The notes beneath the pieces were generated by a model, which made no database searches, was not told the origin of the DNA, and saw only the letters and a list, made by a program, of their open reading frames with translations. A stretch of 49,024 nucleotides of DNA, counting the filler, from Basidiobolus ranarum (Eukaryota), in NCBI GenBank assembly GCA_040143965.1. It is 2 parts of 2 records of this genome, joined end to end, with 100 filler letters (N's around TTAATTAATTAA, not from the genome) between each part and the next. Parts side by side here need not be neighbours in the genome. Positions count along the whole stretch, not along the records: positions 24,586 to 49,024 come from JASJQH010000153.1; 1 more part is not named here. One strand, written 5' to 3'. This document shows, piece by piece, positions 24,486 to 48,165 of the stretch. How positions within the stretch are numbered: position 1 is the stretch's first letter; every line of letters begins with the position of its first letter. Made by a program: the position numbers and the translations under genes.

Positions 24486-24585
24486 NNNNNNNNNNNNNNN
24501 NNNNNNNNNNNNNNNNNNNNNNNNNNNNNTTAATTAATTAANNNNNNNNNNNNNNNNNNNNNNNNNNNNNNNNNNNNNNNNNNNN
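24486..24585. other. Artificial contig spacer: 44 N + TTAATTAATTAA + 44 N
   Basis: Symmetric 100-nt linker whose core gives stop codons in all six frames. Confidence 0.97.
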
Positions 24586-25231
24586 AAGTATTTGGGAGCC
24601 TGTTGGAAGTGGTTTGGAGAATTAGAGGAATTGGTGGTTTTCACTTATTGATTTATTGAGTAGAAAGTTGACATTTATAGTTTTGTCAAGATATAAGCAG
24701 ACTAATGTGTAGGATATGTTAAGGAAAGTTTCAGGAACATGTGTGCAAATTTTGGAGCTTCTTGCATAAGTTTGAAAAATCAATATATCTGAGAACTTCT
24801 AAGTTGGTATCAATATTGTAAGTAAATTTCTTATGAGATTAATGAATAATATCTTGGTGAATTATAAGATAGCTAAGTACTAAGCTATATATGACTATAT
24901 AGGTGTTTAGGCAAAGCTAATTTCAACAATACCTTAGTACTTAGTAATCTTTTATTTCACCAAGATATTACCCATTATTCATTTGAAGAATTTACTTAGA
25001 ATATTTTTTACCAATGTAGAAGTTCTCAGATGTATTGACTTTCAAACTTGTGCTAGAAGCCCCAAACTTTGCACACATGTTCCTGAAACTTTCCTTAACG
25101 CATCCTACACGTTAGTCTGCTTACATCTTGACAAAACTTTAAATGTCTACTTACAACTCAATAAATCAATAAGTGAAAACCACCAATTTCTCTAATTCTC
25201 CAAACCACTTCCAACAGGCTCCCAAATACTT
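24586..25231. mobile_element. Long imperfect inverted repeat (foldback/MITE-like non-autonomous element): arms ~24586-24884 and ~24933-25231, ~48-nt spacer; left arm cut by the contig end
   Basis: AAGTATTTGGGAGCCTGTTGGAAG... is the reverse complement of ...CTTCCAACAGGCTCCCAAATACTT; about 88% arm identity by manual count; no credible coding capacity. Confidence 0.75.
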
Positions 25232-35378: not shown

Positions 35379-36162
35379 ATGGCTCCTCCAAGAAACTGTA
35401 TTCTATGAACGTTGTGGGTTGTACGAATTTACTTTATCTGTGTTTGTTTGAAATTCTTTTTGTTTGTTTCAATGAGTACCCATCGTTCGAGAAGAGCTAC
35501 ATAGCTACTTCTCTGGGCATGAACGAAGTTAACCAATTAATGATTGGGCCTCATGATCATAGGCAAGTGATGAGAGCACCTTATCGCTTGACCGGTTTAT
35601 TTTCTGATTTCTAGGCTCCAAGACCTACAAGGTTCCCAGACGTCCCTTCGAGAAGGAACGTATGGACCAAGAATTAAAGATTATTGGTGAATACGGACTC
35701 CGTAACAAGCGTGAAATCTGGAGAATCGGATACACTCTCTCCAACATCCGTCGTGCTGCTCGTGAGCTTCTCACATTAGATGTCAAGGATACCCGTCGTC
35801 TCTTCGAAGGTAACGCCCTTATTCGTCGTCTTATCCGTATTGGTGTCTTGGATGAATCTAAGGCCAAGCTCGATTACGTCTTGGGTCTCAAGGTTGAAGA
35901 TTTCTTGGAACGTCGTCTCCAAACCCAAGTTTTCAAATTGGGATTAGCCAAATCCATCCATCATGCTCGTGTCCTTATCAAGCAAAGACACATCCGTGTT
36001 GGTAAGCAAGTCGTCGATATTCCTTCTTTCGTTGTTCGTTTGGAATCCCAGAAGCATATCGATTTCGCTTTGACTTCTCCTTACGGTGGTGGTCGTGCTG
36101 GTCGTGTCAAGAGAAAGAGAATGGCCGCCGGTGCTGGTGCTGAGGAAGAAGACGAAGAATAA
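35379..36162 (+). CDS. RPS9: 40S ribosomal protein uS4 (S9); exons 35379-35397, 35615-36162
   Basis: [43 protein letters not shown]...[26 protein letters not shown]. Confidence 0.97.
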
Positions 36163-37045: not shown

Positions 37046-39418
37046 ATGCTGATGGTGGACCAAGCATTGATCATGAGTGTTCCATCAATGGAGAATAACG
37101 ATACTGACTCTTCATATTCTAATGACGAAAAGTTGGACTCAAACTGTGCTTTTTATAGTTATCATGCTGAGAAAGCATTAAAGCATGCAAGTAACTTCAT
37201 ATTTCTTCTTGGAGTCGACTGTTAATAACAATCTTAATAAACATAGGAGGATTCCAAAATCATTGCTCAACAAGTAAAGGCAGCTGAGGAAGAGCAGAAA
37301 GCCACTCACAAACCCTCCTATAGCGGCCGAACGCCTGAAGGAATTCAAGCCCTAGTTGCGATGTACCAAGCTACACATATTCAAGGTATAAATGATGATT
37401 TGAAGTCTAATAAAGTAACCTCTAATCAATATCTCATGCTAGACGAAAGTTACAAGGAGGAGCTAAGGCAGATTTACACAAATGTTCAAAAATGTATGGA
37501 CCTGCGCGACAAATACATAGCCGTATCTCTTCAAAGACCAAATGATGATCCCAGAAATCTACCAGGCTGGGAGATTTACCCTCCACCACCGCCTCCTGGC
37601 TCGAAATCCGGAGAATTTCCAGTTGGTTACGATTTTGATCCAACTCATGTTAAAATGGCTGAAAGTCACTCGGTAACAGTTCACACTCATGGTAGCATAT
37701 TCAATACAAACTAACAATATCTTATAGTTCAACTTTAGCATGGATGAAAGTGGAGTCTATCAAATATATCGCACTACAGAAGGTTCGTATTAGTAGACAA
37801 TATATCATTCAAATCCATTCCAACCGACTCTTTTGCCTTGCCTCTTCCCCTTCATAGATCTCGAACAAGGAAAGCCTGCTTATCACATCCCCTCTATTAG
37901 AGATTACTACCGAGACTTAGAGTTTATCCTTAGTGTGATTTCCGATGGTCAAACCAAATCATTGGCGTTTGATCGTCTACGGTATCTTGAAAGTAGCTGG
38001 GACCTTTATGCCTTGTTGAATGAATATCAGGAAATAGCAGATTCTAAGGTAGACTATCCTAGTTACTATGGCTTATTGAACTAGTGAAGTTAAGTGAGAA
38101 GTTTAGAGAGTGCCTCATAGGGATTTCTACAACGTTCGCAAAGTAGACACTCATGTTCATCATTCGGCTTGCATGAACCAAAAGCATTTGCTGCGCTTCA
38201 TCAAATCCAAGCTGAAGAAGAATCCAGACGTAAGTGAATACTAAGCAATCAAATCCATCTTGACTTACTAACGATGTATCAGGATATTGTAATTCATCGT
38301 GATGACAAAGATTTGACATTAGCCGAAGTATTCGAGAGTTTAAAGCTCACAGTCTATGATCTGAGTATTGATACTCTGGATATGCACGTAAGTATGGTTG
38401 TGCTGCTTTCAGATAGCATTTTCTAACCGATAATTGCAAATACAGGCACATACCGATTCTTTTCATCGCTTTGACAAATTCAATCTGAAATACAACCCCA
38501 TTGGAGAAAGTAGACTGAGAGAGATTTTCCTAAAAACAGATAATAAGATTCAAGGGTCCTACCTTGCAGAACTTACGCGAGGTACGTACCAGGATTAGAA
38601 TTGTTGAAACTGTTGGTTATTTTATTAAATGAGATCATGTAATAGAGGTCATTGGAGACCTCGAGTCTAGTAAGTACCAGCTAGCTGAGTATAGAATATC
38701 CATCTACGGAAGGTCGGTTGATAGAGATCAAATTCATTTTAATTTAAATGTGACTGACGCTCGTTTAATAGATCCGCTTCCGAATGGGATAAGCTAGCAA
38801 AATGGGTCATTAACAACAAACTTTTTTCACCCAATGTTCGTTGGCTTATTCAAATTCCTCGGTTGTATAATGTGTACAAAAGCACTGGCATTGTAGAGAA
38901 CTTCGAGCAGATAATCTACAGTATGTCATTCAACCATCGTTTTTCTATTTTGCAGCTACCGATTCATGAGTCTTTTAGATGTTTTCAATCCATTATTTGA
39001 GGTTACCAAGGACCCCTCATCTCATCCTGAACTTCATATCTTCCTTCAAAGAGTAGTTGGTTTTGACAGTGTCGACGACGAGAGTAAGGCAGAGCGTCGT
39101 ATTCATCGCAAATATCCTCTCCCAAAGGCCTGGGATATGCCTCTAAACCCACCATATACCTACTATCTGTACTACCTGTATGCCAACATCGCCTCTCTCA
39201 ACCACTGGAGAAAGGAGCGAGGATTTAGTAAGTCTTAGTGATATTTTCCTAGATGACTATGAGCACATTACCAACCCATCGTTTTAGGTGCATTCGTCCT
39301 TCGACCTCACTCTGGAGAAGCAGGGGATACGGATCATTTGGCTTCAGCTTATTTGACATCGTGGAGTATTAATCATGGGATTCTTCTTCGTAAAGTTCCA
39401 GCCCTTCAATACTTATAT
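37046..39418 (+). CDS. AMD1: AMP deaminase, about 11 exons, homology ends at ~39418 and the C-terminal catalytic segment is missing (start may be the ATG at 37073); truncated, chimeric or pseudogenising
   Basis: [78 protein letters not shown]; the expected SPLSNN and SLSTDDP motifs are not found downstream. Confidence 0.88.
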
Positions 39419-39713
39419 CAGCAGACAGCAGCTATGAATTATGTAGAACTAAACTTAAGCCCAGATACCGGTAAGTTTTGAGCACTTCTTTAAGAATAGA
39501 ATTTACTCAACAATTGGTTGACTTGGTTTCTTTCAAGTGGATAATTTCTCCACCACAAATAATGGGAAGTTATTATGGTTTGCTACACCTCCTTTAGTAA
39601 TAGATACAGTGGAAAAGCCTCAACATTCTTTAGAATACATGTATCATAAACTTAGTCAACGTAAACTTAAAGTAGCCAATCCAACTCCTCAGAACAAACC
39701 AACCCATAACTGA
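39419..39713 (+). CDS. Foreign C-terminal segment in frame with the AMP deaminase, resembling the Rsc1/Rsc2 C-terminal motif; intron 39471-39537
   Basis: [81 protein letters not shown] donor, TTGAC branch-like site, AAG acceptor. Confidence 0.6.
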
Positions 39714-39985: not shown

Positions 39986-40994
39986 TTAACGTTTAACCCA
40001 GGTATCCTTCTTTCTAGCCTTGGGTTGACCAGTCTTTTTACGTTCAACTCTGCGAGGATCGTGGGTGATACATCCGGCTAGAAATGGATCCCATGTTAGT
40101 CAACAGTTACTAGTGAACTTATCCTTGGAATGAAATGTTAGTTACCTTCTCTGAGTACAGGCTTCTTCGAGAGATCTTGAACGATCAAAGCTCTAGTCAC
40201 ACCAAGAGCAACAGACTCAGCTTGTCCTAAAGGCAAAACAAGTCAGTATATAGTACATATTAACCAAGAGAAGATGTAAATTTCTTACCAGTGGTTCCAC
40301 CACCTTGAGCCAATGCCCAAGTATTGTACTTTCCTAAGGTATTGGAAGCAATAAAAGGGAATATGGTCTTTTCACGATCATGTTGATGATAAAAGTAGTC
40401 GGCGAGAGGTTTACCGTTGACAAAGAATTGACCTTCACCTTCTACCATCCAAACACGAGCAGAGGAACTCTTACGCTTTCCAAAACCATAGGATTTACCA
40501 AATTCATCCACTGCTTTCACTTTTTGGACTTCTTCACCTACATCTACGGCTCTCTTGAACCGTTGCAAATATGCGGTAATATGCTCAGGTAAGTTTTGTT
40601 TACGATTTAAAACATTAAGACGAGAAGTGATCTTTCTGTATTGAGCAGAAGTCAAGGAAAGACCTAACACCTCCGAAAGACGTTTGTTGGTTAACCAAGG
40701 GGAAACAGTAGTATTGATGGTAATCTCTGAGAAGTCCGAATATTCCTTTTGAAGTTCGTCTAAATTCATCAACAGATCATTGTAGTCAGGATTGCCAGTA
40801 AAGTAGGAGGCCGAACGAGGGACTTCACGTGGTTTAATGGTTGGCTCTTGAGAAGTATAGTTAAAAGTAGAAGCCGAACGGACTCCAAGGTGGCTAGTAA
40901 CTCCATAAACCTTATTACCAAGGAAACTCTTAGGAGTGCCGAGGCGAACAGAAGCACAACGAGCTAGTTGAACTCCCCGAATGAATGAACTCAT
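39986..40994 (-). CDS. MRPS9: Mitochondrial ribosomal protein uS9m; exons 40994-40289, 40226-40146, 40077-39986
   Basis: Presequence-like N-terminus; GKRKSSSARVW, GGGTTGQAESV, DPRRVERKKTGQPKARKKDTWVKR. Confidence 0.94.
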
Positions 40995-41422
40995 TTTGTT
41001 TTCTAGAACGACTTAACTATGACACTGAGTTCTCGTTCAAGTTGACTGTCACGGTTTGGTATCTTACGGACCAATTCAACTTTTTTCTTGCGAATGGTCC
41101 CCCTGTGGAAAGCACAAAATTTTTGGTCGAACCCAAAAAGGGGTACAATTTTGCATTGATTTGATGGATACCCCAGACCCCAGAAATTTTCTTCTTTCTA
41201 GTCCATTGATTTAGTCTAATGCGAATACATGTGTAGATGAATGAGATGCTGTATGATATATTTGAAATTTATTGTTTCATTGTTTCCTTGTTACATTGGT
41301 ATGGTTACAAAGAAAGACTAAAGAAAAAATGGGATGAAATGTTATCTAGTATAGAGAGGAGAGCATGGATGAGAGTGCAGTATGCATGTTTTTATCTTGA
41401 GAGTGAAAGTCGTCATGGCATC

Positions 41423-46662: not shown

Positions 46663-48165
46663 TTATAAACTGTATTTCATTTCGGATTCATTGAAGCCGA
46701 CAGTGGGGAATCGACGAGAAAATTCGATAACATCATTCTTGAGTTGGCCAACTTCAGCAATATGTGAGCCATCACCAACATAAGCCTTGAAGTCCTTCAA
46801 CTTAGAGCCACCTGCCTTCTTGTCAGCCTCAGCTGCAATCTTGACTGCACGATCAATGAACCCTGCAATCTTCTCGAAATCCGCCTCATTAAGACCGCGG
46901 GAGGTCATAGCAGGTGTACCAACACGCAGACCACTAGGTACAAGAGCACTCTTGTCGCCGGGAACAGTGTTCTTGTTAGCTGAGATGTTAACCAACTCAA
47001 GAATACGCTCCACACGAGAACCATCAACACCACGTGGGCGGAGGTCGACTAAGACAAGATGGTTGTCAGTACCGCCAGATACTAGCTCAAAGCCATGAGA
47101 GAGGAAGGCTTTGGCAAATGCTTGGCAGTTGGACAATACTTGCTGTTGGTATTGTTGGAACAAAGGATTCTTGGCTTGCTTCAAAGCAACAGCCAATGCA
47201 GTGATGGTGTGGTTGTGTGGGCCACCTTGGTGACCTGGGAATACCGACTGGTTAATGGGGTTCTCCAAGTTGTACTTGATCTCTTCACCCTTCTTGTTGA
47301 CCTTACGGACACCTTTGCGGAAGAAGATGATGGCACCACGAGGACCACGGAGTGACTTGTGAGTGGTGGTGGTGACGATATCGGCATGCTCGAATGGACC
47401 AGGGAGAACTCCAGCGGCAACAAGACCAGAGATGTGAGCCATATCAGCCATCAAGTAAGCATTGACCTTGTCAGCAATCTTTCTCATGCGAGCATAGTCA
47501 ATGTTACGTGCATAAGCAGAAGTACCGGCAATGATCACCTTTGGTCGGTACAAAATAGCGTTCTTCTCTAATGCATCGTAGTCGATGAGGCCAGTGGTCT
47601 CGTCAAGGCGGTAGGGTAGAGACTCAAAGTAGGAACTAGTGGCTGAGATCTTCTTGGTCTCAGTTTGGAAACCGTGAGACAAGTGACCACCATGGGTAAG
47701 TTCCAAACCCATAAGACGATCATGAGGCTTCATGATAGCTGAGTAGACGTAGAGATTGGCTGGGGCACCAGAGAGAGATTGGACGTTCACTCCCCATCTC
47801 TCAGGGTCAAGGTTGAAAGCCTCTAAAGCTCTCTTCTGACAAAGGGTCTCGGCCATATCGATAAACTCGTTACCACCATAGTAGCGAGCACCAGGGTATC
47901 CCTCAGAGTATTTGTTTTGCATTACTGAGCCAAGAGCATCCATGACGGAACGAGAAGTGAAGTTCTCGGAAGGAATGAGGCAAATACCATCACGTTGTCT
48001 AGTTTTCTCCTTCTCGATAATATCAAAAACTTCAGGGTCAACCTCAGTCAAACGAGCGTTTAAGAGTTCCTTCTGCTTAGCCACATAGGACATAGCTCTG
48101 AGAGGTACGCGAGTAGCGACAGCAGAGACAGAGGCAGTTCTCAAAGCGCGGGTGATGGCAAACAT
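46663..48165 (-). CDS. SHM1: Serine hydroxymethyltransferase, mitochondrial precursor, intronless
   Basis: Presequence [44 protein letters not shown]-lysine motif [13 protein letters not shown]. Confidence 0.97.

Follow-up and report, generated by a model that had tools for sequence, protein, structure and literature searches.

In the fungus Basidiobolus ranarum, a gene annotated as an AMP deaminase (AMPD) runs in frame, in the middle of an exon, into the last 75 codons of an unrelated small gene, K7432_011836, and lacks the catalytic C-terminal segment of the enzyme. The fused gene lies at 37046–39713 on the plus strand of a 49,024-nt stretch of DNA (the window), and its 647-residue translation is, residue for residue, the GenBank protein KAK9766459.1, “AMP deaminase, variant 3” (P0170). 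Taking all variants of the idea together, the junction probably reflects a real rearrangement. The specific interpretation put forward here, held with slightly better than even confidence, is that this rearrangement was recent, that its product is non-functional and that a simple deletion is its preferred origin.

The chimeric gene comprises 13 exons (Table 1). Similarity to AMPD ends at position 39418, which closes codon 572, and the following 75 codons are unrelated to AMPD and continue in the same reading frame. The switch point (TTATAT/CAGCAG) has no GT donor and lies mid-contig, with no N. Within the window, no stretch of more than 13 nt from the 791 nt around the junction recurs exactly, and a metagenome scan with a 32-nt pattern from the tail returned 0 matches. 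A preliminary description of this DNA had reported an AMPD that follows its family consensus up to the switch and changes mid-exon without a splice donor, followed by an in-frame tail that crosses a 67-nt intron and reaches a TGA stop codon. Both observations were borne out, the former by the alignment limits given below and the latter by the annotated model. Its multi-exon AMPD structure also stood, subject to two corrections: the first intron is of the GC-AG type, and there is one intron more than a plain open reading frame analysis would give. A GT donor for exon 1 at 37191, 4 nt further downstream, was rejected because it breaks the frame, and the annotated GC-AG intron was used.

Two further isoforms, KAK9766457.1 and KAK9766458.1, are annotated at the locus. 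The intron-retention isoforms, one of 531 residues ending in ...GFSKS (P0125) and one of 471 residues (P0171), both end upstream of the junction; the fully spliced fusion is annotated as well. Retained-intron isoforms and a GC-AG intron are typical of transcript-guided annotation, so their occurrence here suggests that transcripts guided the annotation of the chimeric locus. GenBank thus already lists the fused protein, named simply as an AMP deaminase, and nothing in the names flags a truncation or a chimera. In the literature searched, no paper pairing “Basidiobolus” with “AMP deaminase” was found.

The AMPD-derived part is cut within its domain. Pfam family PF19326 matches residues 95–573 of P0170 with profile positions 15–494 of 630 (727.6 bits against a gathering cut-off of 27), and the alignment of P0170 with Arabidopsis AMPD (2a3l_A) covers chain residues 108–559 of 701. 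A study of the Arabidopsis enzyme (AtAMPD) gives the metal ligands as H391, H393, H659 and D736, and describes inactivation of the enzyme when the equivalent residues are changed to alanine (10.1101/447789). The three histidine ligands are kept in P0170 as H268 and H270 (DTHVHH at 266) and H536 (RPHSGE at 534); ligands were mapped by adding 138 to the 2a3l_A chain index to reach AtAMPD numbering, and were counted by hand on the alignment. The equivalent of D736 would fall about 39 residues beyond the end of the match between P0170 and 2a3l_A.

Correspondingly, P0170 contains neither SPLSNN nor STDDP. In an intact B. ranarum paralogue of 678 residues (P0005), these motifs stand at residues 493 and 522, respectively 10 and 39 residues beyond the position that matches the junction. 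Measured against P0005, the chimeric AMPD lacks about 195 codons past codon 572. Searches of the whole window by tblastn with P0005 and with an AMPD of Basidiobolus meristosporus (P0006) recovered no AMPD C-terminal part (195 residues), and yielded chance matches only (E 0.15–7.9). Loss of the segment that carries the metal-binding Asp had been proposed from the DNA at the outset, and these results uphold it. Because the SPLSNN/STDDP segment with the fourth zinc ligand is missing, the product would be enzymatically dead; from the missing ligand and the established chemistry of amidohydrolases, it is predicted to be unable to deaminate AMP.

The tail was traced with the 57-residue translation of the last exon (P0001), which matched two proteins among 4 candidates. 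One of them (P0003) is the 118-residue “hypothetical protein K7432_011836 [Basidiobolus ranarum]”, encoded on an 8,472-bp contig and 100% identical to P0001. The other (P0004, K493DRAFT_319372) is a 128-residue protein of B. meristosporus that is 72% identical to P0001 over 75% of the query. The tail of the chimera corresponds to P0003 residues 44–118, with all 75 residues identical. The orthologues P0003 and P0004 are 51% identical overall and share a conserved N-terminus (MS.P.FYQ..YAE...); residues 1–43 of P0003, this N-terminus included, found no match in the whole window by tblastn. The tail donor is a small stand-alone gene, with an intact copy on another contig of the same assembly. Pfam assigned no family to the tail, P0003 or P0004 at E values up to 10, AMP_deaminase being the only family in P0170, and detected no bromodomain or BAH domain in any of these four sequences. 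For P0003, the ESM Atlas offered no usable feature match; the P0003 model is disordered, with a predicted local distance difference test (pLDDT) score of 0.32 and a best template modelling (TM) score of 0.39.

The preliminary description had likened the tail to the C-terminus of Rsc1/Rsc2. This likeness holds for the motif; as donor, an Rsc1/Rsc2 gene gives way to K7432_011836, which has no bromodomain or BAH domain. Three profiles were used: A1, built from P0003 and P0004; A2, from 28 small proteins; and the wider A3, from 38 sequences. Searching 1.84 billion representative proteins with A1 gave 41 matches at E ≤ 0.001, including both queries. A Pfam scan covered 23 of the 39 non-query matches. 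Among these 23, eight carry a BAH domain (six also a bromodomain), with the motif C-terminal to BAH; 12 have no Pfam family; and three are unrelated repeat proteins (P0132, P0142 and P0160), of which P0132 and P0142 hold the first half of the motif only, as repeats. Realignment revealed one motif in 38 sequences, approximately [LI]P.[ED]T...F....G.[LV]LWF..PP......P.HS.EYL, and the long carriers named come from Gonapodya, Gigaspora, Fimicolochytrium, Geosiphon and Acaulospora. The C-terminal parts of the long carriers have no Pfam family at E values up to 0.001.

The best solved relatives of one long carrier (P0156) are polybromo-1 (E 5.5e-126), Rsc1 (23cp_U; E 2.5e-73) and Saccharomyces cerevisiae RSC2 (6k15_L; E 6.9e-60). 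In these alignments the motif falls on 23cp_U residues 855–926 and on RSC2 from residue 786 (KGEILWFRGP...), the RSC2 segment alone being not significant (score −2.4). Against the PDB sequences, A2 had a single match, to 23cp_U residues 821–941 (E 5.3e-4). The tail alone (P0001) and A1 gave chance matches only in the same set (tetrathionate hydrolase, methyltransferase; E 0.14–1.6), and with A3 the Rsc1 match was lost, leaving only mL64 (E 2.2). One report describes the CT2 region as “required for Rsc1 or Rsc2 assembly into RSC” (PMC7308085), and a second assigns Rsc1 776–809/892–924 or Rsc2 787–820/849–881 to an “anchor domain” in the RSC head lobe (PMC6959994). The motif position in RSC2, from residue 786, adjoins the modelled anchor segment 787–820. 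By these sequence comparisons, the tail motif is truly homologous to the C-terminal motif of Rsc1/Rsc2/PBRM1-type proteins. The tail holds the first anchor segment only, and P0003 ends 25 residues after HSLEY. A second helical segment, 40–70 residues after the motif, was judged by eye and without statistics to be present in 13 of the 21 motif carriers listed, doubtful in three and absent from five, P0003 and P0004 included.

The motif also occurs outside the proteins with reader domains. Small proteins of about 60–300 residues, among P0131–P0169, carry the anchor motif without a bromodomain or BAH domain in Syncephalis, Entomortierella, Basidiobolus and others, and several of them also carry the second anchor segment. 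They could have arisen by gene fission, could be subunits with an anchor only, or could reflect gene models that were split. Separately, of P0157 and P0176, from Furculomyces and Smittium, one 1345-residue model joins importin-N and Cse1 to BAH and the anchor motif, and is probably two merged gene models.

The chimeric AMPD copy is 87.0% identical to P0005 of B. ranarum over 483 aligned positions, and 88.4% and 81.7% identical to P0172 and P0006, respectively, both of B. meristosporus. In the tree it groups with P0005 and P0172 with 96% support, the branch uniting P0005 and P0172 having 68%; orthology with P0006 was rejected on that 96% grouping. The branch length of the chimeric AMPD (0.134) is close to that of P0005 (0.132). 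Constraint was assessed at alignment columns with at least 95% conservation in a set of 48 other AMPDs of at least 590 residues, retained from 64 after removal of near-duplicates. The chimeric AMPD deviates at 3 of 178 such columns, P0005 at 3 of 176, P0006 at 6 of 178 and the others at 2–6. The retained AMPD part thus shows no decay and, until recently, was conserved as in a functional enzyme gene. The tail shows no difference from P0003 in 75 residues, despite the 51% identity between P0003 and P0004. An undecayed AMPD part and an undiverged tail imply that the join is very recent, allelic or not real.

P0006 (ORX92910.1) itself has DTQVHH in place of DTHVHH, which changes the first metal-ligand His to Gln, and ATDDP in place of STDDP. 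P0006 may represent a further AMPD of the genus on its way to losing activity.

The window consists of two contigs placed end to end, with a 100-nt spacer at 24486–24585 (44 N, TTAATTAATTAA and 44 N); a reading of the N runs as a scaffold gap or adapter was rejected, since they belong to this spacer. The chimeric gene is on the second contig (24586–49024; 24,439 bp) of the B. ranarum K7432 assembly, and only this part of the window is contiguous with it. Exact protein look-up in NCBI and UniRef sources places the three AMPD isoforms and the neighbouring SHMT on this one contig. The neighbours are ordinary housekeeping genes, and the tail of the chimera is separated from MRPS9, a mitochondrial-type ribosomal S9 gene, by 277 bp in a tail-to-tail arrangement. 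SHMT was found on one contig only, with no other member at ≥90% identity. The assembly is highly fragmented, and the contigs concerned measure 4,194, 8,472 and 24,439 bp. At the start of the contig, a nested inverted repeat (24586–25231) has 192-nt arms at 24586–24777 and 25040–25231 that are 93% identical, and inner arms of 77 and 34 nt. A fold-back element could explain this repeat, as could an artefact of the contig end.

Table 1. Coordinates, in the window, of the chimeric gene, its parts and its neighbours.
Feature	Position	Strand	Remarks
Cytosolic ribosomal protein S9/uS4	35608–36162	+	PF00163, PF01479
AMPD-derived part, codons 1–572	37046–39418	+	Domain cut at Pfam position 494/630
Exons 1–7 of chimeric gene	37046–37186, 37247–37385, 37443–37672, 37728–37782, 37858–38048, 38107–38229, 38283–38387	+	
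Exons 8–13 of chimeric gene	38446–38581, 38646–38712, 38772–38920, 38979–39227, 39288–39470, 39538–39713	+	
GC-AG intron between exons 1 and 2	37187–37246	+	GCAAGT...AG; annotated model
Additional intron	37386–37442		Beyond plain open reading frame reading
Retained intron	38921–38978	+	Retention gives P0171 (471 residues)
Retained intron	39228–39287	+	Retention gives P0125 (531 residues)
Junction, mid-exon, in frame	39418..39419	+	TTATAT/CAGCAG; no splice site
First tail segment	39419–39470	+	P0003 residues 44–60
Tail intron, 67 nt, GT-AG	39471–39537	+	GTAAGT...AG
Second tail segment, with Rsc1/2-type anchor motif	39538–39713	+	100% identical to P0003 residues 61–118
Stop codon TGA of chimeric gene	39711–39713		
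MRPS9, mitochondrial-type ribosomal S9	39990–41012	−	PF00380; convergent with chimera tail
SHMT, single exon, 500 residues	46663–48165	−	PF00464; 7 kb downstream; residues encoded at 46666–48165

It is proposed that an AMPD paralogue under normal constraint until recently lost everything past codon 572, and that the broken end came to be followed, in the same reading frame, by the final 75 codons of a K7432_011836 copy, the first anchor motif included. Most simply, a single deletion or non-homologous joining of DNA, affecting one copy or haplotype, would have produced the chimera. Most likely the product is a by-product, neutral or decaying, and would be tolerated because intact P0005 and intact K7432_011836 persist elsewhere. 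One published report describes the B. ranarum genome as about 350 Mb in size, at least diploid and duplicate-rich (PMC3281927), which fits a heterozygous deletion or a paralogous copy. The absence of any N at the junction and of any exact repeat of it longer than 13 nt elsewhere in the window, the natural-looking spacing to MRPS9 and the annotated isoforms favour a genuine recent rearrangement. Several points weigh against it. The junction rests on one fragmented assembly, and the same 75 codons stand on a second contig of that assembly, so that one real sequence could have been threaded twice. An intact annotated allele of the chimeric AMPD copy did not appear among 8 matches from 199 candidates, in which only the three isoforms of the locus reach this level. 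The preliminary description had supposed neighbouring parent genes; in B. meristosporus, separate contig pieces hold the small gene (63,103 bp) and the two annotated AMPDs (113,595 and 195,568 bp).

The foremost rival is an assembly chimera, in which a normal AMPD locus was wrongly joined to the K7432_011836–MRPS9 locus and the fused DNA does not exist in the fungus. This is considered unlikely, though far from negligible. Contigs of only 4–24 kb, a tail protein letter-identical to a gene on another contig, and an AMPD part as fully constrained (3/178 deviations) as an intact real gene should be are all in keeping with it, and an in-frame join would arise by chance one time in three. Against this, the join is mid-contig with no N, its two sides have no common repeat in the window (the longest exact second match being 13 nt), and the 277-bp tail-to-tail spacing to MRPS9 resembles a natural arrangement. 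Moreover, GenBank annotates the fused model plus two isoforms across the gene, and if this annotation is transcript-based, as it would seem to be, real RNA crosses at least part of the gene. A different rearrangement would have duplicated the 3′ part of K7432_011836 recently, together with MRPS9 and downstream genes, and translocated the duplicate to a site beside a broken AMPD copy. Such a history is rather improbable: it needs two events, not one, and no second copy of SHMT, which lies 7 kb downstream, was found at ≥90% identity, so that no large recent segmental duplicate is visible. It would nonetheless account for the intact K7432_011836 on another contig, agrees with the different contig pieces occupied by the small gene and both annotated AMPDs in B. 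meristosporus, and suits the large, at least diploid and duplicate-rich genome described in PMC3281927.

A functional chimera is very improbable. Here, the anchor motif would dock a zinc-site-deficient AMPD body on an RSC/PBAF-like remodeller, or would compete with the small protein or with Rsc1/2. The in-frame fusion keeps the entire first anchor motif, a fully spliced isoform is annotated, and the motif is homologous to the Rsc1/Rsc2-type C-terminal region, which is needed for RSC assembly according to PMC7308085 and is modelled as an anchor domain in PMC6959994. However, a (beta/alpha)8 barrel missing 136 of 630 profile positions would be unlikely to fold stably, two of the three annotated isoforms end before the junction, and the tail lacks the second anchor segment that is present in 13 of the 21 motif carriers listed. 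Nor is there any sign of age, with no difference from P0003 in 75 residues.

If the recent rearrangement is real, it provides a clean, very young in-frame chimeric gene from a single event in a fungus with a large duplicated genome, and shows how spare enzyme copies get lost or recombined. Chimeric or truncated genes arising from rearrangement are already a known kind. The more lasting value may lie in the Rsc1/Rsc2 anchor motif, which is recognisable across early-diverging fungi; the more interesting by-product is that Basidiobolus, Syncephalis and Entomortierella also carry it in small proteins lacking reader domains. There is an outside chance that an expressed chimera, retaining most of the nucleotide-contacting barrel, docks on or blocks an RSC/PBAF-like site, and that K7432_011836 represents a family of stand-alone, “anchor-only” proteins of early-diverging fungi that act as RSC subunits or competitors. 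A docked chimera would then form a lineage-specific link between proteins of adenylate metabolism and chromatin remodelling. Should the join be an artefact, it serves as a warning about one GenBank model.

Compared with eukaryotic AMPD (PF19326; Arabidopsis FAC1/AtAMPD, PDB 2A3L), the chimera shares the HxH and third His ligands, but lacks profile positions 495–630, SPLSNN, STDDP, the Asp equivalent to D736 and a complete barrel. From K7432_011836 it carries the last 75 residues, and not the own start or the conserved N-terminus that K7432_011836 shares with its orthologue P0004. Unlike Rsc1 and Rsc2, it has no bromodomain, BAH domain or second anchor segment; with the CT2/anchor domain of S. 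cerevisiae Rsc1/Rsc2, and with Rsc1 in 23cp_U, its tail shares the motif of the first segment.

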